A DNA stretch of 64,000 nt from Spirulina sp. (GTDB lineage: Bacteria; Cyanobacteriota; Cyanobacteriia; Phormidesmidales; Phormidesmidaceae): the NCBI GenBank assembly GCA_044070495.1, contig JBIPSI010000002.1, positions 160,001 to 224,000 on the forward strand, given 5' to 3'. Below, piece after piece: positions 768 through 37,802 of this stretch (the stretch's first letter is position 1; each line of letters opens with the position of its first letter). The notes beneath the pieces were generated by a model that searched no databases, had not been told where the DNA came from, and worked only from the letters and a program-made list of their open reading frames with translations. Position numbers and translations under genes: made by a program.

Positions 768-1961
768 TCACAATAGCCGAGAGATTGCCAAAACCGCCTC
801 ACTGAGATGCTCGAAGGCCTGAGTTACGTCGGATGCGGTGGTAAATTTGCCCAATCCAAGCCGGAGGGAGCCTTCTACTAAAGGTTCCGGCAAATTCATC
901 GCCCTCAGCACATGGGACGGGGCCTCAACCCCAGAGGAACAGGCGGATCCGGTAGAAAGGGCGAGTTTGTGCCGCACTCTGGCGATGATGGCGCTGTTGG
1001 GGATGCCAGGTATGGAAATGTGTAGGTTCCCAGCCAGACGGTTTTGTGGGTCGCCGTTGATCACTAGGTTGGGAATGTGATCTTGGAGCAGGGCTTGTAG
1101 GCGATCTCGCTTTTTCCCAATTTCAGCCTCATCCACCGCCATTTCGTCTACCCGTAGCCGACAGGCTTCCCCTAACCCTACAATCCCCGGCAGGTTTAGG
1201 GTGCCGGGGCGGATCCCCCGCTGTTGTCCGCCGCCGTAGGTTAAGGGCGCGAGTTGATATCCTCGCTGAACAACCAGTGCCCCTACTCCCTGGGGGCCGT
1301 AGAGCTTGTGAGCGGACAGGGCCAGCAGGGTAAGCCCCCACTCGTTAAACTGAATCGGAATTTTGCCGACGGCTTGGCAGGCATCGCAGAGAAAGGGAAC
1401 CTGGTATCTCTGGGCGATGGCCGCAATTTTCTCTATCGGGTAAACCGTACCGACTTCGTTGTTGGCCGCCATGATGCAGAGCAGATGAAGGCCATGGGCA
1501 CAGGCTTGCTCTAGCGCATCCAGATCCAGACGGGCCTGGGTATCGACAGGGATATAAATGAGATCGATACGCCCTTGTTTCTGGAGGGCGGCGCAGGTGT
1601 CGAGGACGGCTTTGTGTTCAACGGTGGAGATGGCGATGCGGGGTTTGCCCTCACCCCCAGCCCTTTGGCCCTCACCCCCAGCCCCTCTCCCCAGGGAGAG
1701 GGGAGCTAGAGCGTTGATGGTGCCTTGGATGGCGAGGTTGAGGCTTTCGGTGGCCCCAGATGTGAAGATAATATCTCTGGGGGTAGCGCCCACCAGTTCA
1801 GCAACGTGGCGGCTGGCTTGTTTAACGGCGGCTTCGGCCCGATCCCCCACCTCATGATCGAGGCTGCTAGCGTTGCCAAAATGCGTCGTCATCGCCTGTA
1901 AAACCTTTTCCGCCACCCTTGGATCAACGGGAGTTGTGGCGTGGTAGTCAAGATAGATCAT
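768..1961 (-). CDS. Cysteine desulfurase (IscS/DndA/SspA type)
   Basis: MIYLDYHATTP start at 1961, FTSGATES, ANNEVG, SAHKLYGPQG (PLP Lys), STGSACSS (catalytic Cys); context suggests SspA role. Confidence 0.92.
   Translation of the reverse strand: MIYLDYHATTPVDPRVAEKVLQAMTTHFGNASSLDHEVGDRAEAAVKQASRHVAELVGATPRDIIFTSGATESLNLAIQGTINALAPLSLGRGAGGEGQRAGGEGKPRIAISTVEHKAVLDTCAALQKQGRIDLIYIPVDTQARLDLDALEQACAHGLHLLCIMAANNEVGTVYPIEKIAAIAQRYQVPFLCDACQAVGKIPIQFNEWGLTLLALSAHKLYGPQGVGALVVQRGYQLAPLTYGGGQQRGIRPGTLNLPGIVGLGEACRLRVDEMAVDEAEIGKKRDRLQALLQDHIPNLVINGDPQNRLAGNLHISIPGIPNSAIIARVRHKLALSTGSACSSGVEAPSHVLRAMNLPEPLVEGSLRLGLGKFTTASDVTQAFEHLSEAVLAISRLL
1647..1708. repeat. CCCTCACCCC/CCCTCTCCC..GGGAGAGGG palindromic repeat inserted in frame in the desulfurase
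   Basis: Encodes low-complexity APLSLGRGAGGEGQRAGGEG; same family at 11289, 12861, 14958, 19950, 54307. Confidence 0.8.
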
Positions 1962-2055
1962 TGTCAGGAAGGGTAATTCCAGGGATAACAGGGCAACGGT
2001 ACCCTGAATCGTAGTACAGGGCGGTGTGGGTTGCCCGGTCGCCCTGGCCAAGCTG
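1962..2055 (-). repeat. Junction repeat copy D (degenerate gene 3' end directly upstream of the desulfurase)
   Basis: Plus-strand core tcgtagtacag------ggcggtgtggg (2009-2030); minus strand reads QLGQGDRATHTALYYD. Confidence 0.75.
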
Positions 2056-2118
2056 CTCCTTCTGATTCTGTGACAATGGCATAATAGAAGCCATCCGACC
2101 CGCCAAGGATGCTGTCCC

Positions 2119-2877
2119 ATGGCCGAGACCACCGGACTCACCGCCGCACCCATCCTCTATCCCGATGGCGATGGCCAACCGATGACCGAAAGCGACGCCA
2201 CTCGCGATTACCTGCTGTACTGCGTTGAGGTGCTGCAACTGTATTTCAAGGGGCGGCCTAACGTCTATGTTTCTGGCAACCTGTTTGTCTACTACGAAGA
2301 AGGCAACCCCAAAGCCTCTATTTCGCCGGATGTCTTCGTTATTTTTGGCGCGAACAACCGCAAGCGCCGCAGCTACAAAGCTTGGCAAGAGGGCAACAGA
2401 CTACCTAATTTTGTCCTAGAAATTACCTGCCGCAGCACCAAACGCCAAGACCAGGAGGAAAAACCTCGCCTCTACGCCCGCCTAGGCATTGAGGAATATT
2501 TTCAGTACGACCCCACCGCCGACTATCTCCAGCCCCAACTGCAAGGAGCCCGACTGGTGGAGGGTACCTATCACCCCCTGCCCCTGGCTTCTACCCCCGC
2601 AGGTCTGCCCTTCATCCACAGCGACGTTCTAGGGCTAGACCTGCAACTCCATCCATCCTACCCCGAACTCGGCTTGGCCCCAGCGGCCCAGGCACTCCGG
2701 TTTTATGACCCCCAAACCGGGGCAAAACTGCTCAGCCGCTACGAACTCGAACGTCTGCGCGAAGCCCTGCAAGAGGAAAATGAGCTGATTCAGCAGGAAC
2801 GGGACGCCGCCCAGCAACGAGCGGAGAAACTCGCGGCCCGCCTACGCGCTTTGGGCCTAGACCCTGACGAGGACTAA
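2119..2877 (+). CDS. Uma2 family PD-(D/E)XK endonuclease
   Basis: YPDGDGQPMTES, SPDVFV, PNFVLEIT, LGIEEYFQYDP, coiled-coil tail ending LRALGLDP. Confidence 0.9.
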   Translation: MAETTGLTAAPILYPDGDGQPMTESDATRDYLLYCVEVLQLYFKGRPNVYVSGNLFVYYEEGNPKASISPDVFVIFGANNRKRRSYKAWQEGNRLPNFVLEITCRSTKRQDQEEKPRLYARLGIEEYFQYDPTADYLQPQLQGARLVEGTYHPLPLASTPAGLPFIHSDVLGLDLQLHPSYPELGLAPAAQALRFYDPQTGAKLLSRYELERLREALQEENELIQQERDAAQQRAEKLAARLRALGLDPDED

Positions 2878-2890
2878 GGGGAAAGATGGC

Positions 2891-2940
2891 CCTAGGCACG
2901 GCACAGGTTGTAGTACAGGTCTAGGGCGGTGAGGGCAATT
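2891..2940 (-). repeat. Junction repeat copy C
   Basis: gtagtacaggtctagggcggtgagggcaat (2910-2939); minus strand reads IALTALDLYYNLCRA*. Confidence 0.8.
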
Positions 2941-3331
2941 AGTAATTAGGGTTGCCAAAGTGTCGCTCGGCCCATTCAACCATGCGTTCGCTTTGCTGAA
3001 TCAGGTCTTGTGCATTGTCCGAGGTGAGTTTAGCCTCCTGATCGATGCCGTAATCGGCTTGGGTGCGCTTATCTTGGGCATCAATTAAAGAGCGATGAAA
3101 TTCTGTAGGAACTAATCCTGGTTTTGCCAGTTCTCTACCGAAGGCGGCAATGACAGCACCGTGACTAGAGAATGATAGCCCCTGCTGCCAAAGTAGGGCT
3201 TCAGCAATGTAAAACATGGTGTAGTAGGCTCTGGAGCCAGCGAAGTCATACATTTGGTTAGCCGCTAGCAATTTAGACGCTTGCAGGCTTTCCTTAGCTT
3301 TATCCAGAAAGGCTTGCAGGTCTTCCGTCAT
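2939..3331 (-). CDS. HEPN domain protein (toxin of MNT-HEPN pair)
   Basis: KAKESL..A, SRAYYTMFY, SSHGAVIAAFG, KRTQADY; 4-nt overlap with upstream MNT. Confidence 0.88.
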   Translation of the reverse strand: MTEDLQAFLDKAKESLQASKLLAANQMYDFAGSRAYYTMFYIAEALLWQQGLSFSSHGAVIAAFGRELAKPGLVPTEFHRSLIDAQDKRTQADYGIDQEAKLTSDNAQDLIQQSERMVEWAERHFGNPNY

Positions 3332-3651
3332 ATCACGATTCCCTCTTTTCTGATGTTTGACAGAAAGGGGTTTTGGCTAGAGATAAACTTTTCAGTCGAG
3401 ATAAAATGCCGTGAGATAACCACGTCATACTCAAGGCAAAGTTGGGCGATGAAGTCTCCAGTTTTGTCAATTTCTAGGTAGGGACTTGTGAGTTGATCAA
3501 GCACTACTAAAATATCAATATCAGAATCATTATGACTATCTTCCCTTGCCTGAGAACCATATAAAATAATGCTCTGAAGACGATCTGAATAGAGGGTTTT
3601 CAAATAGTCTTTAACGGCATTTAAGATGGCATCAAGGTTTTGGTGTTTCAT
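3328..3651 (-). CDS. Minimal nucleotidyltransferase (MNT antitoxin)
   Basis: IILYGSQARE..NDSDIDILVV (GSx10DxD). Confidence 0.9.
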   Translation of the reverse strand: MKHQNLDAILNAVKDYLKTLYSDRLQSIILYGSQAREDSHNDSDIDILVVLDQLTSPYLEIDKTGDFIAQLCLEYDVVISRHFISTEKFISSQNPFLSNIRKEGIVI

Positions 3652-3659
3652 GGTGCTAT

Positions 3660-3774
3660 TGAGTAGTAGCTATGTGACCCAAAATAGATAAGGCAATAGT
3701 GACAGGACTAATTAAGAGGATTCCTGGGCAATGGTAATCTGATCGTAGTATAGGTCTAGGGTGGTGGGGCAATT
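3660..3774 (-). repeat. Junction repeat copy B, including a degenerate copy of the desulfurase 5' end
   Basis: Minus strand TTLDLYYDQITIAQESS*, then a spacer similar to 1962-2005, then ATC TAT TTT GGG TCA CAT (A) GCT ACT ACT = IYFGSH-ATT versus IYLDYHATT of the desulfurase. Confidence 0.75.
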
Positions 3775-3802
3775 CGCTATAGCGATAGATAAGCTGAAAG
3801 CA

Positions 3803-4027
3803 TTAGAGATCCCCTAGCCTTTTGATTAAATCCTGATGTACAGCCTGCCAAATTCCTTGGGCCAGATGGGCAGTAAATCGAGCCTCATCCTCTGTGGGAT
3901 CGTCGCCATGGACGGGGTAACGGGCTTCAATGGCCCAGTTGGTGAGTTCTCGCAACTGCGGGAAGGCCATAGCATACTGCCACCAGCGTTTGATCAGCGC
4001 TTTTTGCTCAGGAGGTAGCTCGTTCAT
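3803..4027 (-). pseudogene. HEPN domain gene with in-frame internal deletion
   Basis: 74 aa from ATG 4027: ...KRWWQYA joined directly to MAFPQLRELTNWAIEARYP; the central AQQAAEK..HDL segment expected in this family is absent. Confidence 0.7.
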
Positions 4028-4352
4028 AGAGTGCGGTGCCTTCGCGCAGGGCGGGACGTAAAATGGTGCCGACGAGATGGCCGTAGGTGGCGATTTCCTC
4101 TGGGGTGGTGACGATAATATCTTTGCTGATGGGTACATCGGCGAGGGCTTGGCCGATGGCAATGGCCTGCTGGCGTTTGTGGGTTCCCGATGGCATCACA
4201 ATCAACAAATCGAGGTCGCTGTCGGCGGTGGCGTCGCCCCTGGCGTAGGAACCAAATAAAATGATTTTGAGGGGCTGAAATTGCTGAACGATGCGCTCTG
4301 TAATCAGGCGCAGGTAGGGCGCAGGGGTTGGCGGGATGGCAGCATGACTCAT
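4008..4352 (-). CDS. Minimal nucleotidyltransferase (MNT antitoxin)
   Basis: KIILFGSYARGDATADSDLDLLIV, C-terminal ALREG..LY. Confidence 0.9.
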   Translation of the reverse strand: MSHAAIPPTPAPYLRLITERIVQQFQPLKIILFGSYARGDATADSDLDLLIVMPSGTHKRQQAIAIGQALADVPISKDIIVTTPEEIATYGHLVGTILRPALREGTALYERATS

Positions 4353-4585
4353 GGGTCTTGGGGATTGTCAGTAGTGATCTGATCGTAGTACAGGTCTAGG
4401 GCGGTGTGGGCGATGTGAGCTAGGGTGGTGCGGTCGGTGGGGCTGAGTTGTCGCCAAAGGACGGGGTTGAATTTAAGCTGGGTGAGTTCTTGTTGCCGCT
4501 GTACAAATTTGCGCCGCTCGAATTTCCCGAAGGGCATGATTAACATAATATGCTTAACGTTGTCATCGGTAGACTTAGTGATGTC
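4349..4585 (-). pseudogene. 3' remnant of a larger gene (junction repeat copy A); resembles C-terminal tails of restriction-type SF2 helicases
   Basis: VKHIMLIMPFGKFERRKFV...FNPVLWRQLSPTDRTTLAHIAHTALDLYYDQI; upstream DNA switches to AT-rich; family assignment from memory only. Confidence 0.5.
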
Positions 4586-4701
4586 TATTGTATAAGAAAT
4601 TGATAACATAAGCCTCATCTATAACTTGACTAGTTCACTGCTCCGAGGGCACCTCGAATCTGTAAGACTGAATCTATATCTAGCGAAACAGTCACGAATC
4701 A

Positions 4702-5736
4702 TTGTCTAAAGTCATGAGAATTGAAGAAGGAAAAGAAAAAAAGAAGAAAATAAAATATAGTTACGCTTGGGATAATCTTAAAAAACTAGTTTTTGTTGGC
4801 GATCTTGAAAATTCAACTGAAACCAGAAAAAGAGAATTTACATGCATTTCTTGCGGCAATCTTCTCATTCCAAAGCTAGGTAAAATTAAGCAAAAGCATT
4901 TTGCTCACAAGAATATTTGTGACTGTAGCTTTGAGACATACCTACACCTACTAGCCAAAGAAATATTCTTGATAGAGTACAATAAATGTCTAGATAACAA
5001 CATTCCTTTCTATGTAGAAGTTTTAGTAGAAACTTATTGTGATGCCAATAAGGAAGATTTTAATCTGACATGTGAACTAGGTTCTAAATCTCAGAAATAC
5101 GACATTACGAAAAAATACAAGAAGATTCAGAAAGAAGTTGAGGTCGATGGTTTTATTCCCGACCTTTTGCTTTCAACGCCTGACAACAAAGAAAAACTCT
5201 TTATTGAGATATTTGTGACTCATAAATCCACAGAAAATAAAATTAAATCGGGATTCAATATTATTGAAATTCAGATAAAAAGTGAAGACGATATTGATCT
5301 TCTCAGAAGTAGGGTTTTATCGGAGCAAGAGAATATAAATTTTTACGGTTTCAATATTAAGCCCGTAAGAACAGTTTGTGCTGGCGATCTTGGATGCCCT
5401 CACAAAAAAAGAATATTTAATGTCTTTGAGAATGGTAAAAGCATCTGTATAACTCATGGACTTCCAGGAGTCTCAACGTTCTTAAAAAGAATCACTCAAA
5501 CAAACATCATATATTATGAAATTATTGACTTTGATTACTATTGGGATGGAGAAGACTATGTCAAAAAAGTTATTGAAGTTTATGGCAAAGGAATTCCAAT
5601 AAGAAACTGCTATTTATGTCGATATCAAGGAGATAATCATCGGTGGGATAATGAAGGAAAGCCAATTTTCTGTCGTTTCCTGAAAATTAGATGCAATTCT
5701 AATCAGGCTTCAGAATGCCAGTATTTTCGAGTCTAG
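4702..5736 (+). CDS. CoiA-like zinc ribbon plus PD-(D/E)XK nuclease domain protein
   Basis: FTCISCGNLLIPKLG..KHFAHK..C..ETYLH, FIPDLLL...IEIFVTH, C-terminal Cys cluster; very AT-rich. Confidence 0.7.
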   Translation: MSKVMRIEEGKEKKKKIKYSYAWDNLKKLVFVGDLENSTETRKREFTCISCGNLLIPKLGKIKQKHFAHKNICDCSFETYLHLLAKEIFLIEYNKCLDNNIPFYVEVLVETYCDANKEDFNLTCELGSKSQKYDITKKYKKIQKEVEVDGFIPDLLLSTPDNKEKLFIEIFVTHKSTENKIKSGFNIIEIQIKSEDDIDLLRSRVLSEQENINFYGFNIKPVRTVCAGDLGCPHKKRIFNVFENGKSICITHGLPGVSTFLKRITQTNIIYYEIIDFDYYWDGEDYVKKVIEVYGKGIPIRNCYLCRYQGDNHRWDNEGKPIFCRFLKIRCNSNQASECQYFRV

Positions 5737-5749
5737 CTCAATTACTTGT

Positions 5750-6463
5750 TCAAATCTTGTAGAAGATTTTTTTATCGATGTTTGAAACGTTAGGGTTTCG
5801 ATTTTGCATATAACTAACCCATTCCCATTCTGCCCACCTGCGGATAACCTTGTGGTTTTCCCTTAAATAGTCAATCCAGTTAGGATGAAGCATAATTAGA
5901 TCGCAATCTCTGTAATGAATCGAGTTGAATTTATACAGTGGCTTATGGCTTTCAAAATATTGAGATGCTATCTCCGGCATAGCCATCTCCAGTTCAGTTC
6001 CGCGTCCTCGATCAACATCTCCTAGACAATCTTCCAAGAAAGGAATAATTAAACGAAAAGGGACATTTCTACGCAGACGATCAACAGCATAAGATAGATC
6101 CTTTTTAGCGATCATTTTTCTGATCGTTGATTTATTGGCTAATCGACCATCTGTTAGAGATTTATCAAAAATCAAGTTTAGAGAGTTTATAATTGTATTA
6201 ATTTTATCCTGACTACCTAGCGAAAGGTTGGAAATCATGCAGGGAATCCAGGCATTAACCAACATTTCTAGAATCAAGTTCTGAAACTCGATCACCTGAG
6301 TGTTAAAGTTGTTTCGCTCCAGAATATCTAGAATTGAAAGAAAGAATAAGAACTTATAAGAGGTTGTATTTCGCTCGAAAATTCGAGAAAGAGCAAGTAC
6401 ATCAACTGTCGAGGAATTAGGTAGTCCTCCTGACTGACTGAGATCAGTTCTGGATTTAGACAT
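5750..6463 (-). CDS. N-terminal domain of a cyanobacterial HNH endonuclease family, HNH domain absent
   Basis: LSRIF..NTTSYKFLFFLSILD, NVPFRLIIPF, PLYKF, HPNWIDYL, YMQNRNPNV; stops before any CxY/DHxxP HNH motif. Confidence 0.6.
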   Translation of the reverse strand: MSKSRTDLSQSGGLPNSSTVDVLALSRIFERNTTSYKFLFFLSILDILERNNFNTQVIEFQNLILEMLVNAWIPCMISNLSLGSQDKINTIINSLNLIFDKSLTDGRLANKSTIRKMIAKKDLSYAVDRLRRNVPFRLIIPFLEDCLGDVDRGRGTELEMAMPEIASQYFESHKPLYKFNSIHYRDCDLIMLHPNWIDYLRENHKVIRRWAEWEWVSYMQNRNPNVSNIDKKIFYKI

Positions 6464-6498
6464 AAATCACCTGGGCATATTTTCCTAGGTTATTCTCC

Positions 6499-6729
6499 CT
6501 ACGAGCGAAAGTCATCAGGGAGTTCATTCAGTGTTACACCCAGAGCCTCGCAGAGGGCTTTCATTTGGGGAACTGTCAGGCTGGCCACACTCGTCCCCCG
6601 CTCCCAGTTGCTCACGGTTTTGCTGCTCACACCCACAATCCGAGCCAGTGCCTCTTGAGAAAGACCTGCTTGCTCTCTCAGAGACTTGAGGGGCTTGGGG
6701 GTGGCTGAATCGGACGACTGAGCGGACAT
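6499..6729 (-). CDS. XRE-family helix-turn-helix regulator
   Basis: LKSLREQAGLSQEALARIVGVSSKTVSNWERG. Confidence 0.92.
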   Translation of the reverse strand: MSAQSSDSATPKPLKSLREQAGLSQEALARIVGVSSKTVSNWERGTSVASLTVPQMKALCEALGVTLNELPDDFRS

Positions 6730-7917: not shown

Positions 7918-8577
7918 TTAGGCTTCCGGTTCCACCCCCATCGCCCTCAACTGTTCAGCCAGCCGTGCCGCCCGTGCCTCAGATTGTTCCGCCGCTTCCT
8001 CTGGAGTGGGCAGCCGCTCCCCCGCCTCTGTAAAATACCGCAGCTTGCCCTCCTGCACCCCCAAATACAGCCCTAGCACCTGGCTCCAAAGCCATCCCGT
8101 TGGGTTGGGCGCAATCGGCTGATAGCGTTGATCCACCAGGTGATAGCCCTCAAACTCCAGCGTTTCTGGCGAGAACCAAAAATACTCCGGGGTGCGAAAA
8201 CGGTCTTGGTACAGCGTTTTCTTAAGGTTCTTATCGGTTTTTGCCGTCGAGTCAGACAGTAGTTCGATGATCAAATCTGGGTACTGTCCCCCTTCTTCCC
8301 ACACCACCCACGACTTGCGAGGTCGCCTGTCGGTATGGCTAACCAAGAAAAAATCTGGGCCTCTAAAATCTCGGTTCTTAAGCTGTTCTCGGCTGAAATA
8401 GATCGTTAGGTTTGCACCAATAAAAAAGTCATTGCGGTCACGCCATAGCCACTCTAAACAAGCCACCAACAGGGCAAGCTGAGCATAGTGCAGCGAACTT
8501 TCCATTTCGGGTTCATTACTTTCTAGCTGGGTTGCATCTGGCATTAGATCTGCCAGTTGTTGAGCGGTTAATGCCAT
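7918..8577 (-). CDS. Uma2 family endonuclease
   Basis: SNEPEMESSLH, FRGPDFF, PDLIIELLS, PEYFWFSP. Confidence 0.92.
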   Translation of the reverse strand: MALTAQQLADLMPDATQLESNEPEMESSLHYAQLALLVACLEWLWRDRNDFFIGANLTIYFSREQLKNRDFRGPDFFLVSHTDRRPRKSWVVWEEGGQYPDLIIELLSDSTAKTDKNLKKTLYQDRFRTPEYFWFSPETLEFEGYHLVDQRYQPIAPNPTGWLWSQVLGLYLGVQEGKLRYFTEAGERLPTPEEAAEQSEARAARLAEQLRAMGVEPEA

Positions 8578-8668
8578 AGTCTGACTAGCCTTTTACTGAG
8601 ATGGTTGTAAGTTAAGAAAACTTTGAGAATTGTGCATTTTGGGAATCTAGTCTTGGAATAAAACTATC

Positions 8669-9124
8669 CTATGGGTTGTCAGAGGCTGGGAAAAAGTCAG
8701 AATTGAGCAGATCCTTCAAATTATAGGGACATTCTGAGGGAAACCTATCTAGAGTCATCTGGGTTTCTTTTGCAGCATCTCGACGGGCGCGACGATAATA
8801 TTTTTCGACCCACTCTGAATTATTAAGAAATCGTTGTAGGCTAGAACTATCTTCTAAACAGTCCTGAATGGCATCACGGATATTAGAAATCGTCATTTTC
8901 CAACTCGTTGTTCTACATTCTGGCTGATATTGCCATTTGAGCAGGTGCATGATTAACATCTTTAGATAGCTGCCTAGCTCCTTCTGTTCGCTACGTCCCA
9001 AGTCCCCTAGTTCCTCAACTAGATTATCAATATCAATATTTTCCCACTGTCCTTGTTGTAGACAGACAATTTGATGCTCTGTCCACTCCAAAAAATCTTG
9101 ACTGTAGATGGTTTGCCTTACCAT
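8669..9124 (-). CDS. DUF29 domain protein
   Basis: YSQDFLEW, DIDNLVEELGDLGRSE, HLLKWQYQP, FPSECPY. Confidence 0.9.
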   Translation of the reverse strand: MVRQTIYSQDFLEWTEHQIVCLQQGQWENIDIDNLVEELGDLGRSEQKELGSYLKMLIMHLLKWQYQPECRTTSWKMTISNIRDAIQDCLEDSSSLQRFLNNSEWVEKYYRRARRDAAKETQMTLDRFPSECPYNLKDLLNSDFFPASDNP

Positions 9125-9141
9125 AAGACGGCTATCCTAAC

Positions 9142-9738
9142 TCACCAAATCAGCGACAAATCCAACACAAATCCTGGCAAAACCTCACCACCCGATAGCG
9201 TGGTTGGTGCCGTCAAAATTTCCACAGCTTGGCCAGGGCGATAGATCTCAATCTGTTGCAGCTTGCGGTTAATGAGCCAGCCAAGCTGAGTTCCATTTTC
9301 CAGGTATTCCAGCATTTTTTTGCGAGTACGATCCAGGGAATCGCTAGGCGACATCAACTCAACCACAAAATCTGGACACAGGGGCACAAACTGGTCTTGC
9401 TGCTCTGGGGTGAGGGCTTGCCAACGATCCTTCCGAACCCAGGCGGCATCGGGGGATCGGTCGGCCCCATTAGGCAGCGTAAACCCAGTGGATGAATCAA
9501 ACACCTCCCCCAGTTGGGTGCGGGTATTCCAGAGATCGAGCTGGGTGGTGAGCTTAACATTACGCTTGCCCGTATTGCCCCCGGTTGGCGACATAATGAT
9601 GAGCTCCCCAGTGGCAGTGCGTTCAAATTTTAGGTCGCGATGGTTTTGACAAAGCTGAAAAAACTGGTCGTCGGTTAGATCTAAATCTAGGATTAAGGGC
9701 GTGGGCAAGGGCGAAGATAGGTTCGTAGGAGAGGCCAT
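9142..9738 (-). CDS. Uma2 family endonuclease
   Basis: GELIIMSPTG, FDSSTGFTLPNGADRSPDAAW, CPDFVVELMSPSD. Confidence 0.92.
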   Translation of the reverse strand: MASPTNLSSPLPTPLILDLDLTDDQFFQLCQNHRDLKFERTATGELIIMSPTGGNTGKRNVKLTTQLDLWNTRTQLGEVFDSSTGFTLPNGADRSPDAAWVRKDRWQALTPEQQDQFVPLCPDFVVELMSPSDSLDRTRKKMLEYLENGTQLGWLINRKLQQIEIYRPGQAVEILTAPTTLSGGEVLPGFVLDLSLIW

Positions 9739-10397
9739 TAGTTGATCTCCTCAAGATATTGCTCAAACTCGCGCAGGGCCACGCTAGACCCCGCCACCCA
9801 GGCGCGTTCCACATACTGGGGCAACAGCGTTGCAACCTCCACCGTGGGAAAGGTGGAGCTGGTGGATAAACGGTCGTAACCAGTGGCGGTTAACCCATAG
9901 ATAAGAAGTTGGCCCTGGCGATAGATCCAAACCTCTGGCACCCGCAAAAGTTCGTAAACCGATAGATCGGTGTAGGATGTCCAGTCCATTTCAATCACCA
10001 GATCAGGGGGCGGATCTTGGCTGAGATCAATACGATCCTTTCCTAAAACAGCCTGCCAATTCTGAATATAAAAACAGGCATCCGGTTCAGCCCCAGCTTC
10101 GTCCATTTGCTTGAGGGTGATGGGGTGAGAACTATCCCAATTCCGACCCTGGTGCCGCAGAAGCGCCTTGACCAAATCCACCAGGGTATCAATGCGTCTA
10201 CCGTGGGCGGGAAGGGGAGCCATGATCCGTAGTTCTTGGGTGTGGGCGTTGAAGCGAATTTTGATGGCGGCATTTTCGCGGCGGCTGGTCAGCAGGGCTT
10301 CGTAGTCGGCCCAGGTTTGGTCGCTGAGGGTCACGCTGCTCCCGGCAGGCAGTTGAATGTGGTCGCGGCTAACGGACAAAACCATGGGAGAGGCCAT
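9738..10397 (-). CDS. Uma2 family endonuclease
   Basis: IMAPLPAH, EPDACFYI, PPPDLVIEMD, VPEVWIY. Confidence 0.9.
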   Translation of the reverse strand: MASPMVLSVSRDHIQLPAGSSVTLSDQTWADYEALLTSRRENAAIKIRFNAHTQELRIMAPLPAHGRRIDTLVDLVKALLRHQGRNWDSSHPITLKQMDEAGAEPDACFYIQNWQAVLGKDRIDLSQDPPPDLVIEMDWTSYTDLSVYELLRVPEVWIYRQGQLLIYGLTATGYDRLSTSSTFPTVEVATLLPQYVERAWVAGSSVALREFEQYLEEIN

Positions 10398-10445
10398 TGC
10401 TATTACTCCATGGAGACTTGGGGAAGATTTATCTATGATGCCCCA

Positions 10446-11243
10446 TCACACTTCATCGGGGTTGATGCCCAATGCTCGCAGGCGTTCGGCTAGGCGATTA
10501 GCCCGCTGTTCGGCCTGGGTGGCCTGTTCTGCAGCTTGTTCTGCCCGTTCTTCAGCCTGCTCCGCCCGTTCTGCGGCAGAAAGAATGAGTTGTCCATCGG
10601 CATCAAACCACCGCAGCCAGAGGCGTTCGATACCTTCATAGGTGCCCTGCCAAACCCCCAGGCTAAGCTGCCATTCTGGAATGGAAATGCGTTGATCGGT
10701 GATCTCCATCGGTTGATAATGGCCACCTACCAGACGAAAGGCCCGGAGCTGGTTGGTGTAGCGGTCAAAGATTACGTAGTAGGGAATCCGCAGAATTTGT
10801 TCGTAGACTTCCCACTTGGTCGGTGGCTGGCCCGCAATCCTGGACGTTTGGCCCAGGTCTTCTTTTTCGGTGCCAGGAGACAGTAGCTCCACCACCACGA
10901 AGGGATTTACCCGCTCTTGCCAGACCACATAGCTCAGCCGCATATCGCGGTTTTCGTAGAGCCGGGGCACCCCCACCACCGCAAACCAATCGGGCCGCTT
11001 GTGCCACAGGGGATGATCGACATCGTAGTAGAGGTTCATATCCCCAACGCTGAAGACCTCATTTTCGGCCACGGTGGCGAGGTGCAGCGTGGCACTGAGC
11101 AAATGGGGCTGGAGGTAATGATACTCGTCGGGCAATCCTGGCTCCTCTGGGTCTTCGCTCGGCAGGTCATACATGGTGGGCAAGGTTTCCCTGGCCGACC
11201 GGGGCGGGTCTGTCTGTTCTACAGGGCGCTTGAGTTCTGGCAT
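10446..11243 (-). CDS. Uma2 family endonuclease
   Basis: LPTMYDLPSEDPEEPGLPDEYH, RPDWFAV, VVELLSPGT; start placed at ATG 11243 because further upstream is repeat DNA. Confidence 0.9.
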   Translation of the reverse strand: MPELKRPVEQTDPPRSARETLPTMYDLPSEDPEEPGLPDEYHYLQPHLLSATLHLATVAENEVFSVGDMNLYYDVDHPLWHKRPDWFAVVGVPRLYENRDMRLSYVVWQERVNPFVVVELLSPGTEKEDLGQTSRIAGQPPTKWEVYEQILRIPYYVIFDRYTNQLRAFRLVGGHYQPMEITDQRISIPEWQLSLGVWQGTYEGIERLWLRWFDADGQLILSAAERAEQAEERAEQAAEQATQAEQRANRLAERLRALGINPDEV

Positions 11244-11288
11244 GGTGGTTAACATCCTCCACAAAAACTGTCCCGGTATCCTGACCTT

Positions 11289-11553
11289 GGCCCTCACCCC
11301 TGCCCCTCTTCCCACGGGCGAGGGGTTCTGAATCTAGCTCCCCTTCTCCCTCCTGGCTACTGTGTACACATAAGTCCTTAACGTAGACGATACAGGGAAT
11401 CGATCCCCCCTAGCCCCCCTTAAAAAGGGGAGATCGGAGTCAAAGTCCCCCTTTTTAAGGGGGATTTAGGGGGATCTCCAAGGACTTGCGGCATGAGATC
11501 AAGATGTGTGTACTTAGTAGCTCCCTCCTGGGAGAGGGGTTGGGGGTAAGGGC
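11289..11553. repeat. Double-hairpin CCCTCACCCC repeat element hosting a MITE in its second hairpin
   Basis: ggccctcacccctgcccctcttcccacgggcgagggg ... ggagaggggttgggggtaagggcc. Confidence 0.7.
11356..11521. mobile_element. MITE (166 bp) with 15-bp TIR and 9-bp target duplication
   Basis: GCTACTGTGTACACA ... TGTGTACTTAGTAGC (13/15); TCCCTCCTG at 11347-11355 and 11522-11530; related copy at 19974. Confidence 0.85.
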
Positions 11554-15397: not shown

Positions 15398-16309
15398 TCA
15401 ACCCGCAAAATACTTGTTCAGAATAGCCTCAGACATGGTTAGCGGATCGCCTTCGTACTGAAGCTGTAGCAATCCGGCACTGTCTGAAATAAACAGATCT
15501 TCCCGGCGGCGGGCCACCTGTTCGATGGCTTCGGCAATGGCGGCTTCCGAGAGCTTAAACACCCGCCCCGGACTGCCCACCAAATGGGCCAAACGAGATA
15601 CCCCCATGGCCGAGCTTTCGTTTTCAGAAATTCCGGCAAATTCCAAACAGGCCGCCACCACGATTTCGGCGGGCAGGGTTTCCTTGGGGCCAACCTGAAA
15701 CTCGTAGCGCCGCCCATCTCCCACGCTGTAGAGCAGGCGCAGGGCGGTAAAGGGGCAATCAATGGAGTCTTCCGTCGGCCCTTTTTTGCTCTCCTGGTCG
15801 GCATACATTCGCAGAATGCAGCTTACGTCTTTGCGTAGGGAGGAGTCGGCAATGGAGCTACTAAAGCCGTTGGCATAGTCCCGTAGTTCATCGATTAGAT
15901 GCTCTGGGGTAAACTCTGCGGCCTGAAATTCCCCAAAGGCATAGGCCCAGGCCGTGGCGGTGCAGGGAGCCTTGAGCAAATTCCAGTGCAGCAGCCAGAG
16001 ACTCGCTGGGTTCTCTAGGAACGGATCCCAGCCGTCATCATCCAGCAGTTGTTGCCCCAGCCGCGTGGGCACAATCTGACCATCCTTCTCTGTCAAAACC
16101 TTAAAGGCGCTGCACCAGTAGCGAATAGAACGCACCATATTTTTACCCACGCCCAGCAAAACCGGGGCATCTTCGCGCAAGAAAATGTCGGGATCCGCTA
16201 GGGCGAGGTCATAGCCCTTTTTGAGCCAGCCAAAGCGGGGGTGGAAGGTCTCATGGCGGGCGAAGACCGCTGGAGCTTTGGGCTTTTCGGTAATGGCGGC
16301 TTTTGCCAT
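15398..16309 (-). CDS. DUF4007 family protein (SspB-like)
   Basis: FARHETFHPRFGWLKKG, LGVGKNMVRSIRYW, DPFLE..SLWLLHW, PGRVFKL. Confidence 0.92.
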   Translation of the reverse strand: MAKAAITEKPKAPAVFARHETFHPRFGWLKKGYDLALADPDIFLREDAPVLLGVGKNMVRSIRYWCSAFKVLTEKDGQIVPTRLGQQLLDDDGWDPFLENPASLWLLHWNLLKAPCTATAWAYAFGEFQAAEFTPEHLIDELRDYANGFSSSIADSSLRKDVSCILRMYADQESKKGPTEDSIDCPFTALRLLYSVGDGRRYEFQVGPKETLPAEIVVAACLEFAGISENESSAMGVSRLAHLVGSPGRVFKLSEAAIAEAIEQVARRREDLFISDSAGLLQLQYEGDPLTMSEAILNKYFAG

Positions 16310-35474: not shown

Positions 35475-37802
35475 TTAGTTCCACAGACCTTGATCCGTGG
35501 TTTCCGCAGTGAGGTGGGCTTGGTAGCCTTGCTTGGGTCGCCACAGGATAGCCCCATCCCGCTCGGTACACCACACTTGGATGCCTCGCTGGGTGAGGGT
35601 GGCTTCGGTTTCTGGGGATAGGCGACGGGTGGAGGCAATGGCGATGCGGGGCTGGATGGCGGCCACTAAATCGGGCTGGAGGGCTTGGCCATCCCACCAA
35701 AGCACATCGCTGGCGAGGGGGATGGCAGACTGTAGCAACGCCCGCTGATCGGAGGCCGTGAGGTGGGTCAGCAGGAGCCAGGTTTGTTGGTGAAACAATG
35801 TCAGCTTAAGGGCCGTAGCGGTTTCGGAGAGGGATTCGACTCGGTGCTGCCCCAGGGTGAGGGGTTGGTGTGGCCCTAGGGTGATCGGGTGATGGATATC
35901 CTTAGGGGCGACGCTCAGGCGGTGGGTTTGGTAGAAGTTTTGAATGGGAGCTTGGCCCATCAGGGTGTGCCAGTTTGGGGTATCACTGCTCTGCCCAGCA
36001 ATGGCGTGGTTAAGGCGGTTGATGCCCGCCTGTCTTAGAAACGGCCCCACGGTATAAAACGCGGTGGACTGAGTGCCGCTATTAACTAACAGAGTCGATT
36101 GACGATCCTGCACCACCATGACGGCATCATTACCCGCCGCCAGTACCGTGGCCTGGGCAAGGGTAGCCCCTCGGTACCACAGTGGCCCTAGGGCTGTGAC
36201 CAATACCAATAGCGCCACCAACCACCGCCATCGACGGCCTAGGGCCGACCATCCGCCCAGGCCATAGAGTCCGTACAGCCCAATCATTTGCCAGAGGGCG
36301 ATGTGGCCCATGGCGAGGGTACTGCTGGGTAGGCCAATTTCCCAGTGCACCAGGGCAATCAGCACCGTGGTAGGTAGCCATAGCACAGCGGCCAGGAGAC
36401 TGCCTAAAGCGGGCAGGGCCAGGGCCACCAATCCGCTGATCATGCCCCCCAGGCTGATCACAGTCACCAGCGGCGTCACCACCATGTTCAGCAGGACGCT
36501 GTAGGTGGTGAGGGTATTGAAATAGTACAAACTGAGGGGAATCGTCCAAAAATAGGCCGCTACGGGCACCGCGAGCAGGGTGGCCAGGGCCGGGGGCAGC
36601 CAGTTCAGCCGATCCGTCAGCGGCTGCACACTCACCATCAGGCCCAGGGTGGCCATGACGCTGAGGCGAAACCCGACATCGTCAACCCAGAGGGGATTCC
36701 AAATTAGCAGTAGAGTGACTGCCAAGAGCAAACAACCCAAGGGTTTGACCCTCCGCTCTAGGGCAAGGCCCACCAAGGCTCCCACCCCCATTAACGCGGC
36801 CCGCATCACGCTGGGCTGGACTCCGGTCATCAGCACATAGCCCGCCAAAACCGCGATCCCTACCCCCAGTTGAACCCGCCCTGGATGGGAGAACCGCCCC
36901 TGCAAGACGGGCAGGCGCAACATCCCCATCACCAAGCCCAGCAGCAGAGAGACATGGAACCCAGAGGCTGCCAGGGTATGGGCGAGGCCCGCTTGGATGA
37001 AGGCATCCTGGAGGGGATAGGGCACCTGCACCGCCTGCCGACCGAGGGCCATGGCACTCACCAAGGCTCCCTGCTCTGGCCCTAGCCCTTGGGCGTGGGC
37101 TTGAACAATGCGCTGCCGCAGTTGCCACAGCCCCCACCCAGCCTCCTGCTGCACGGTCACTTGCCGCCCGCTCAGGCCAGCGTAGACTTCTCGACTGGCC
37201 AGGTATTGCTGAAAGTTAAAGGCGTTGGGATTTTTGGCCCCAGACGGGGCATAGAGTTGGCCCACCACCCGCAGGGTTTGGCCAGGGCGCAGGTCTTTGA
37301 TCGCATCCAGGGGAGTGGTGACGTAGAGGGTGCCCTCGGTGGCTAGGGTGGCCCCTTGGGGTTGCCCCGATTCGTCCAAACGCCTGACCTGTTGGGCTTG
37401 CAGCCAAAACTGTCCCTTGCCGCTGCGGCTTTCCTTGGGCATTTCCGTGAGGCGGCCCCACACCTCTTGCTGGGTTCCGGTGGTTGCTCCAGGCTGGATC
37501 AAATGGCTGATGTCTAGCACAGAGGGCTGGGGATACTGCCAACCGTAGTTGAGGGCCGCCACCAGTCCCAATCCGCCCAGCCCCACCCAAAGGGCAGGTC
37601 GTGGGCCGAGGGGCCAGGATTTTGCTAGGGTGAGGGCCGCCCCTAACCCCAGCGCTACCAGGATTAGCCCCGTGAGGCCAACCCCCGCCCAGAGTCCTAG
37701 CCCTCCGTGCCGTACCCACAAGCTAACCACAAACAATCCGGCAACGTACGCGCCGCAACCCAACATTCCAGCAATGGAACCCATCGATTTTCTTGCACCC
37801 AT
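35475..37802 (-). CDS. comEC: ComEC/Rec2 competence protein
   Basis: NPNAFNF, GLAHTLAASGFHVS, PSVMRA, GFRLS. Confidence 0.92.
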   Translation of the reverse strand: MGARKSMGSIAGMLGCGAYVAGLFVVSLWVRHGGLGLWAGVGLTGLILVALGLGAALTLAKSWPLGPRPALWVGLGGLGLVAALNYGWQYPQPSVLDISHLIQPGATTGTQQEVWGRLTEMPKESRSGKGQFWLQAQQVRRLDESGQPQGATLATEGTLYVTTPLDAIKDLRPGQTLRVVGQLYAPSGAKNPNAFNFQQYLASREVYAGLSGRQVTVQQEAGWGLWQLRQRIVQAHAQGLGPEQGALVSAMALGRQAVQVPYPLQDAFIQAGLAHTLAASGFHVSLLLGLVMGMLRLPVLQGRFSHPGRVQLGVGIAVLAGYVLMTGVQPSVMRAALMGVGALVGLALERRVKPLGCLLLAVTLLLIWNPLWVDDVGFRLSVMATLGLMVSVQPLTDRLNWLPPALATLLAVPVAAYFWTIPLSLYYFNTLTTYSVLLNMVVTPLVTVISLGGMISGLVALALPALGSLLAAVLWLPTTVLIALVHWEIGLPSSTLAMGHIALWQMIGLYGLYGLGGWSALGRRWRWLVALLVLVTALGPLWYRGATLAQATVLAAGNDAVMVVQDRQSTLLVNSGTQSTAFYTVGPFLRQAGINRLNHAIAGQSSDTPNWHTLMGQAPIQNFYQTHRLSVAPKDIHHPITLGPHQPLTLGQHRVESLSETATALKLTLFHQQTWLLLTHLTASDQRALLQSAIPLASDVLWWDGQALQPDLVAAIQPRIAIASTRRLSPETEATLTQRGIQVWCTERDGAILWRPKQGYQAHLTAETTDQGLWN

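Follow-up and report, generated by a model that had tools for sequence, protein, structure and literature searches.

A helicase-desulfurase junction in Spirulina sp. with toxin-antitoxin and Uma2 cassettes between direct junction copies

Restriction-modification (RM) genes can enter chromosomes by insertion with long target duplication, for which Nobusato et al. 2000 is reportedly the reference. In the available part of a study of this process (PMC2853133; Furuta, Abe and Kobayashi 2010), RM inserts lie between direct repeats of more than 30 bp, of which the empty site in a relative has just one. The same part describes the repeats as unique in the genome and often overlapping the 3' end of a gene, with no mobility genes; most cases are in naturally competent species, one is in Microcystis, and double-strand breakage is the suggested mechanism (PMC2853133). 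The locus described here lies in a 64,000-nt stretch of Spirulina sp. (GCA_044070495.1, contig JBIPSI010000002.1, here C2), and this whole stretch is called the window. On the minus strand the order is a helix-turn-helix (HTH) gene, an AT-rich island, the tail of a truncated helicase gene, an MNT1 gene with a HEPN remnant, an MNT2-HEPN2 pair, a reversed Uma2 gene and a cysteine desulfurase gene, with four copies of a short repeat, A to D, separating the modules (Table 1). The array is probably an accretion of small selfish modules at the junction between the helicase 3' end and the desulfurase start, built by insertion with long target duplication.

As in the published class, an addictive module stands between direct repeats, the insert has no mobility gene, and the repeats are unique in the genome, lie at the 3' end of a gene and are single at the empty site of relatives, here G019 and G027. 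Measured against the published limit of more than 30 bp (PMC2853133) the repeats are borderline, with 41, 31 and 30 nt, and thus short at this locus. The cargo is different, in that toxin-antitoxin (TA) pairs and Uma2 take the place of RM genes and the one RM pair with this build is at another locus of the genome, C51. A further difference is that the event is repeated at one junction, which builds arrays of up to 3-4 cassettes, different from genome to genome. Because the cargo is MNT-HEPN and Uma2 and not RM, the locus is a variant of insertion with long target duplication rather than a strict member. No description of TA or Uma2 arrays of this build was found in the literature searched, paywalled journals excepted. 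A 2026 study calls it unclear how TA modules get into and out of chromosomes, and the words 'direct repeat' are absent from its available part (PMC13617665).

The 22-nt motif GTAGTACAGGTCTAGGGCGGTG occurs without mismatch at 2910-2931 and 4385-4406 and with 2 mismatches at 3745-3766, and in the copy at 2008-2030 the two motif halves are present with the 6 nt between them gone. Motif scan and self-comparison agree here with the initial annotation, which had named these four places, and 100 shuffles of the window gave no match. In a sensitive self-blastn, copies A and B are 87.8% identical over 41 nt, A and C 93.3% over 30 nt and B and C 90.3% over 31 nt; copies D and A align at 79% over 29 nt with a gap, a match that is weak alone (E = 0.5). 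The copies, all four, are direct repeats. The minus-strand open reading frame (ORF) 4349-4618 has ...TALDLYYDQ... at its end, encoded by copy A, so the earlier recognition of the motif as a gene end encoding TALDLYY was right. The assignment of the junction to the start of sspA and to an ssp locus is not shown: the 62-codon frame ending in ...TALDLYYDQITTDNPQDP is the tail of a ResIII helicase gene of which only these last 62 codons survive in the window, and the desulfurase reaches 325.8 bits where the DndA model asks for 480. Across the 5,313,730 bases and 74 contigs of the genome the motif is confined to 2910, 3745 and 4385 (at most 3 mismatches; reversed-pattern control 0). It is therefore no dispersed repeat, the alternative that had been raised at the outset and that a motif found nowhere else in the 5.3-Mb genome removes.

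The core is nearly invariant among the copies and the arms differ. Right arms (from GATCAGAT...) track the following cassette and left arms the preceding one. The internal copies have ATTGCC in common where primary copies have ATCGCC or ATGGCC, and the core of copy B (CACCACCC...CCTATAC) has two core variants that are both present in the primary copy of the related locus L060 too; some copies therefore derive from one another or are recombinants. Beyond the repeat, copy B runs on for a further 85 nt or so in degenerate form. As had been noted initially, this extension resembles the spacer and the first 12 or so codons of the desulfurase gene, and the local alignment score of 37 was reached by 0/2000 shuffles (17.2 +/- 3.1). 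The alignment of copy D with the single junction of G019 scores 164, and 0/2000 shuffles score as high.

The core pattern was scanned in 185,579 species genomes, one metagenome collection and 53 genomes of the genus. It was found in 3 contigs of the species genomes and 1 metagenome contig, all four of them this locus, and in 9 of the 53 genus genomes (at most 3 mismatches; controls all 0). Seven of these nine were inspected and all are this locus; the 3-mismatch matches in G064 and G021 were left aside. Comparison of these loci shows that cassette number and content vary between relatives while the cassettes stay bounded by junction copies. Empty sites are found in G019 (L046 1254-1450), with a truncated tail, one copy, the spacer and the desulfurase gene, and in G027 (L016 5981-6090), where the arrangement is the same with a tail shorter still, behind a full 388-aa HNH_4 gene. 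G030 has an intact helicase gene followed by a reversed Uma2 gene, 87.9% identical to that of the window, a degenerate copy and the desulfurase gene. L048 holds a different set, namely the tail with a copy, DUF2281 and PIN genes, a copy, MNT and HepT genes, a copy, the AT-rich MNT-HEPN cassette and the desulfurase gene, with no copy before the latter. PIN, a copy and MNT follow each other in L056; L060 has the tail, and its contig stops inside the repeat; L051 has a broken MNT1-like gene, an IS630-like fragment, a copy and the desulfurase gene. In G004 an intact helicase gene is directly followed by a desulfurase gene without its 5' two thirds. Variation of this kind had been predicted in the initial annotation, and G019 and G027 as empty sites, G030 with Uma2 only and L048 with another set agree with the prediction; a fixed gene content, the competing possibility, does not fit relatives that differ in cassette number and content.

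Contigs assembled from other public sequencing runs show further states. In contigs from two studies position 2939 is joined to 4470 and both MNT modules are absent, and in one contig of another run MNT2 stands ahead of MNT1 and a full-length HEPN1 gene. A joint of 2931 to 3724 is weak, with 38 letters on one side. Four runs were compared, as contigs, with at most 43% of sampled words per run; the contigs represent other strains, not excision events in the strain of the window. It is hardly credible that such arrangements are artefacts from draft contigs misjoined at a short repeat. Two tiny contigs of G067 do end in or near the repeat and many of the genomes are metagenome bins, but bridged copies are found in the independent assemblies L048, L056 and L051 as well as in run contigs of X3 and of X1, which is possibly the source sample, and the copies, 22-41 nt, are shorter than sequencing reads.

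The window and L048 (5213-6032) share the AT-rich cassette 2 together with its left repeat, at 95.0-95.7% identity along 820 nt, whereas the adjoining desulfurase gene is only 80.7% identical. Judged by this difference, the AT-rich MNT-HEPN cassette has clearly moved horizontally between lineages. The shared stretch runs from the left edge of the repeat to a point inside the 3' end of the HEPN gene, and the genomes differ beyond. One homologous and one illegitimate end would be the trace expected from anchored integration during transformation. Homology-facilitated illegitimate recombination in transformable bacteria likewise combines one homologous anchor with an illegitimate joint at the other end, and the left repeat shared with L048 and the right homology ending inside the HEPN 3' end are alike in this respect. 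Its experimental cases differ in that they are reported mostly to delete recipient DNA and not to duplicate it.

The order of events can be proposed in part. In L048 the AT-rich cassette directly precedes the real start of the desulfurase gene; together with the extension of copy B, this placement indicates that the cassette entered inside the desulfurase 5' end. As far as the alignments tell, what its insertion duplicated is the spacer and the desulfurase start, not the helicase tail. The Uma2 gene and copy D would be older than the truncation of the helicase gene, because G030 has both. G019 and G027 have the truncation seen in the window and no Uma2 gene, and the right arm of their junction is of the D type (GATTCAGGG...). 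The simplest reading would be that the primary copy recombined with copy D and that Uma2 was thereby lost in these two genomes. Repeats of this kind plausibly mediate both loss and exchange of cassettes. The suggestion that they do so in a naturally competent host had been made from the outset and is plausible; a comEC-like gene lies in the window at about 36249-37028. The initial proposal of repeated insertion at one junction, with duplication and no integrase, is largely right. Cargo has accumulated between junction copies, but not every cassette duplicated the junction afresh, since the internal copies share ATTGCC and the AT-rich cassette entered inside the desulfurase 5' end.

In the proposed process an incoming module would become flanked by two direct copies of the target, tens to hundreds of bases long, with no integrase or transposase travelling along. 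The copies would then be portable homology, through which recombination could delete cassettes, add others from different alleles and reorder them. The spread of cassettes between strains would in this way outpace the divergence of the flanking genes, probably through natural transformation with the repeat as anchor. The minimal mobile elements of Neisseria consist of alternative cargos between conserved flanks, moved by transformation and homologous recombination. Alternative cargos, the same flanks and the lack of own mobility genes are common to both; the Neisseria elements differ in having one cargo at a time, and are not known to have duplicated junction copies or arrays.

Several points weigh against this explanation. 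The internal copies share ATTGCC, and three different cassettes have their insertion points within about 10 nt of each other. Random illegitimate insertion predicts a looser spacing, and a site-directed process, or one internal repeat having been copied, would fit as well. With 30-41 nt of clear identity, the duplications at this locus are at the low end of the published class. A leftward extension of copy D into the helicase tail is not significant, its score being reached by 187/2000 shuffles. The process is read from contigs of other strains, with no step observed, and many of the genomes are draft or metagenome assemblies, which repeats can mislead.

It is unlikely, although not without points in its favour, that the junction was duplicated only once or twice long ago and that unequal crossing-over and transformation then exchanged and stacked the alternative cargos which different strains have between the two conserved flanks, without any special process of insertion. 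The derived letters common to the internal copies suggest descent from one internal copy; the match of the copy B core variant with the primary copy of L060 gives a mosaic pattern; a cassette is more alike between genomes than its flanks; and a comEC-like gene is present. Such a history leaves the first entry of each cargo between copies unaccounted for, however, and the left and right boundaries of the copies vary by cassette. Moreover, target copies of 49-215 nt flank single cassettes at many unrelated loci. Varied target copies at many loci point to a process that duplicates at each insertion, as in the preferred reading of long target duplication.

A tandem segmental duplication of the tail and an MNT-HEPN unit, followed by divergence, would account for two adjacent modules of the same gene types, MNT and then HEPN. 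This is very improbable and is contradicted by GC content, self-comparison and the content of L048: the two modules have no nucleotide similarity beyond a patch of 16-28 nt, their GC differs (about 0.57 and 0.37-0.49), the third module, Uma2, is unrelated and points the other way, and relatives have VapBC or HepT-type modules at the same places.

Integrons and clusters of attC sites lacking integron-integrases (CALIN) hold co-oriented small cassettes between repeats, their content varies and TA cassettes are common cargo. The array resembles them in its co-oriented small cassettes with repeats between, in its variable content and in its TA cargo. Unlike integrons, it has no IntI-type recombinase on its contig and no structured attC hairpin; the repeats copy the end of a local host gene, each array having a repeat of its own, and the Uma2 cassette is inverted and carries its own upstream region. 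A recombinase encoded elsewhere might still act on the core (CACCGCCCTAGACCTGTACTACGATCAG, coding strand) and insert or excise circular cassettes at the helicase tail, the upstream cassette taking the left half-sites along and the downstream cassette the right ones. A nearly invariant core with differing arms, the right arm GATCAGATTACC... accompanying the AT-rich cassette in two genomes and left arms the preceding cassette, the common orientation of the TA cassettes, the occurrence of one cassette at different positions in different arrays and the insertion points within about 10 nt would all agree with this.

We nevertheless consider such a system improbable. The contig has no recombinase of the tyrosine or serine type: the 5 genome matches to Phage_integrase (PF00589) all lie outside C2, as does the 1 match to Resolvase (PF00239), transposase families not having been searched genome-wide. 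No hairpin was found in 8 folds of the four copies on both strands (z-scores -1.73 to +0.83, no stem spanning the core). The motif occurs at this locus only in all collections scanned, so the cassettes do not carry it elsewhere, and the other arrays of the genome use unrelated repeats with no common 6-mer. The run of about 85 nt from copy B into the spacer and the copied gene start is left unexplained by a short core site. The initial description as an integron-like array without integrase or attC therefore holds for what is lacking on the contig and in the copies, and less so for the likeness, since the evidence disfavours an integron-like system. Promoter- or terminator-like sites were not seen in the repeats in a weak scan of 1900-4700, which gave 3 promoter-like sites against 2.8 expected and counts at the level of shuffles. 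The co-oriented cassettes may be expressed by read-through from the upstream gene.

Two further classes were compared. The pdif (Xer) modules of Acinetobacter plasmids are small, often TA, and bounded by Xer sites that all modules have in common and that are 28 nt long, dyad-symmetric and alternating in orientation. Small size, frequent TA content, short repeats and the lack of an own recombinase are common to both, but the copies here are direct, locus-specific and without dyad symmetry, and the repeats of other arrays are unrelated; an Xer consensus was left aside in this comparison. An orphan array of the contact-dependent inhibition (CDI) or Rhs type, in which alternative toxin C-termini and immunity genes come after the gene-end copies, was rejected, the frames after the copies having only about 5-18 codons and the modules being complete TA pairs.

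The same build is not limited to this junction. When the genome was compared with itself, direct repeat pairs 28-260 nt long, with an identity of 84% or more and a distance of 350-2600 nt, came out at 45 loci; inverted pairs at the same thresholds came out at 13. Pfam was run on 20 of the 45 (111 ORFs), and TA, Uma2 or RM genes lie between the copies in 14 of them, one ambiguous and one weak. The build of the window, with TA, Uma2 or RM genes between direct copies of the end of a neighbouring gene, is found at at least 13 other loci of the genome. The cargo consists of DUF433 and a RelE-like pair at C9; PIN, DUF4160 with DUF2442, and DUF6036 at C15; DUF433 with DUF5615 at C1 and C44; RelE at C39; UPF0175, PIN with DUF2281, and HicA at C37; Uma2 and PIN with VapB at C30; XisH/XisI, UPF0175 and DUF3368 at C27; PIN, HNH and ParE at C46; PIN at C20 and C19; PIN and an Eco29kI restriction enzyme with a C5 methylase at C51; a weak MqsA-like match at C35; and Uma2 at C4, the ambiguous case, where the flanking repeat also matches in inverted orientation. 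The remaining 6/20 hold a diversity-generating retroelement, paralogous genes or unrelated cargo. C54 was dropped as such a retroelement (bAvd and reverse transcriptase), C10, C12, C13, C34 and C15:1700 were dropped for want of TA-type cargo, and C4 was dropped for its repeat that also matches inverted. Of 23 PIN matches in the genome, 7 fall inside the 45 intervals, which make up 1.48% of its length (binomial p = 3e-8), an enrichment of about 20-fold genome-wide; this count is a lower bound, since the short repeats of the window itself are below the thresholds of the scan.

The repeats in these arrays are the ends of neighbouring host genes. At C9 the repeat is the last 90-110 nt or so of a TPR gene in three copies, at C15 the upstream region and first 26 or so codons of an LRR gene in five copies, and at C44 a stretch of 175 nt, the last 58 codons of uvrA through the stop. 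The number of copies of this 175-nt uvrA end differs within the genus, with 1 in G010 (an empty site), 2 in G000, 3 in G005 and 4 in G027, and the cassettes between the copies differ as well. No 6-mer is common to the repeats of 16 arrays beyond chance (the best in 5/16, against 0.8-0.9 expected), which argues against one sequence-specific enzyme. CCCTAG/CTAGGG, a lead by eye for a shared motif, showed no excess, the 6-mer occurring at 1.4/kb genome-wide.

The initial annotation had put the locus forward as a new system of ssp loci. This cannot be upheld, as the same build recurs at 13 or more further loci and, in different members of the genus, at the uvrA 3' end, and the kind is in print for RM genes (PMC2853133). 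The locus is instead a clear example, and a comparatively rich one, of how selfish modules accrete throughout the genome. Insertion with long target duplication is thereby extended from RM genes to other selfish modules, and its iteration yields integron-like arrays without an integrase. A wider claim may be made tentatively, namely that this genus of filamentous cyanobacteria has a general integrase-free process stacking TA, Uma2 and RM modules unidirectionally at gene ends. Each insertion would copy the end or start of a host gene and give each locus a private recombination site, the whole being an integron-like cassette bank filled, emptied and shuffled by transformation and homologous recombination. 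If this is true, chromosomal TA modules of such bacteria possibly travel mainly in this way. The helicase-desulfurase junction and the uvrA 3' end form two natural series with empty, single and multiple states, and these, with the moved cassette and the enrichment of about 20-fold, make the process testable and give a tractable view of the movement of modules without an integrase.

The identities of the modules were obtained by a Pfam search of the ORFs of the window (Table 1). They bear out the earlier reading as two MNT-HEPN modules, Uma2 and the desulfurase, save that the first HEPN is a remnant of only 75 aa. A contig of another run (X3) has 197 extra letters between 3964 and 3970, that is, within this remnant. 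The edges of the Uma2 unit are set by a paralogous unit in the same genome, at C13, that is 89% identical.

Table 1. Features of the junction array and adjoining genes, with positions in the window
Feature	Position	Strand	Observation
Class V cysteine desulfurase (IscS/NifS/DndA-like), downstream of array	768-1961	-	Pfam Aminotran_5, E = 1.1e-63
Spacer, 46 nt, copy D to desulfurase start (junction right arm)	1962-2007	-	Alignable with the one junction present in each of G019 and G027
Copy D of the helicase-tail repeat, minus 6 nt	2008-2030	-	Degenerate copy at the same place in G030, short of the same 6 bases
Uma2 unit: 49 nt upstream and ORF 2119-2877	2070-2880	+ (opposite to other modules)	Pfam Uma2, E = 3.9e-16; ortholog at the same place in G030
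Copy C	2895-2942, core 2910-2931	-	Overlaps the HEPN2 stop; motif scan, self-comparison
HEPN toxin, AT-rich cassette 2	2939-3331	-	Pfam HEPN, E = 2.2e-17
MNT nucleotidyltransferase antitoxin, AT-rich cassette 2	3328-3651	-	Pfam NTP_transf_2 and Polbeta
Degenerate copy of spacer and first ~12 desulfurase codons, joined to copy B	3661-3744	-	Local alignment
Copy B	3734-3773, core 3745-3766 with 2 mismatches	-	Motif scan, self-comparison
HEPN remnant, cassette 1, 75 aa	3803-4030	-	HEPN profile positions 76-114, E = 0.035, below cut-off
MNT nucleotidyltransferase, cassette 1	4008-4352	-	Pfam NTP_transf_2, E = 9.7e-13
Copy A, primary copy	4369-4414, core 4385-4406	-	Inside helicase tail 4349-4537
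Helicase C-terminus, last 62 codons of a ~761-aa ResIII/Helicase_C gene	4349-4537	-	Matches intact 761-763-aa frames of G004 and G048
AT-rich island, GC 0.31-0.38	4546-6480		Took the place of most of the helicase
CoiA_N-like ORF in AT-rich island	4702-5736	+	Pfam
HNH_4-family protein, N-terminal part (front 237 aa)	5750-6463	-	Full 387-388-aa HNH_4 proteins at the same place in G019 and G027
XRE-type HTH gene	6499-6729	-	Pfam HTH_3; precedes the helicase (or HNH gene) in all relatives seen; 90.9% identical in G027

Among the 53 genomes of the genus, orthologues of the ResIII helicase occur only in G004 and G030, other matches being at most 37% identical, and the intact gene in G004 and G048 is preceded by the same kind of HTH gene. 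Behind the shared HTH gene stands either a 761-aa ResIII helicase (G004, G030, G048) or a 387-388-aa HNH_4 protein (G019, G027), as seen when window 4546-6480, L046 66-1229 and L016 4816-5982 are compared. It looks as if one nuclease or helicase module had replaced another as an allele, beside phosphorothioation-related genes. The desulfurase is below the cut-offs of all NCBIfam models, NifS and IscS scoring higher than DndA yet also below. A gene for a DUF4007 protein (15398-16309, E = 2.3e-97) and one for a putative phosphorothioation-associated methyltransferase (TIGR04096, 16507-18546, 841 bits) lie 13-16 kb from the array, and four Uma2 genes and one DUF29 gene (7918-11315) stand between. 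The comEC-like gene is a Pfam Competence match (E = 2.8e-51) within a 790-aa open frame.

In G004 (L012 7745-8113 and 6277-7707) an MNT-HepT pair is found beside the 5'-truncated desulfurase remnant; the pair is flanked by direct repeats of the 3' part of a small gene, 156 nt (91%) and 72 nt (93%) long. The IS630-type transposase-like fragment of L051, recognised by eye from its translation, is at about 1400-1560, between the broken MNT1-like gene and the last copy.

Some of the other arrays have features of their own. At C9:8600-10300 (L065) a RelE-like pair and, as a second TA cassette, DUF433 with a DUF5615-like gene lie between the three TPR-end copies; the copy in the intact TPR gene ends in ...KLDEDKG and the two downstream copies in ...KLDNGE. 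A search for relatives of this array matched only G005 (98% at query positions 1238-2602) and was swamped by TPR paralogues. At C15:112400-115800 (L066) the five LRR-start copies bound four cassettes, and three copies run on into a stretch of about 25 nt (TATCTAGGGAGCTTACAATAG-like) that is absent from the real LRR gene; the internal copies were therefore copied from one another. The uvrA loci (C44:3800-5500, i.e. L068, and L097, L098 and L090) have different TA cassettes between the copies, and the array in G027 also has a 379-aa ATPase-like gene with a 235-aa partner. C51:1900-6100 (L075) is the RM example of the build, its Eco29kI-type enzyme and C5 cytosine methylase being bounded by a repeat that also bounds a PIN gene. 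In the retroelement locus C54:9700-14000 (L079), with bAvd and reverse transcriptase, repeats of about 130 nt at the ends of FGE-sulfatase-type genes are likely the template and variable repeats, and a ParE pair stands between them. At C3:53900-58750 five direct repeats of about 75-90 nt, 85-94% identical, separate genes that by eye are phage- or plasmid-like (ParB-like, RadC-like and a 386-aa protein), and this may be a different kind of repeat-punctuated array.

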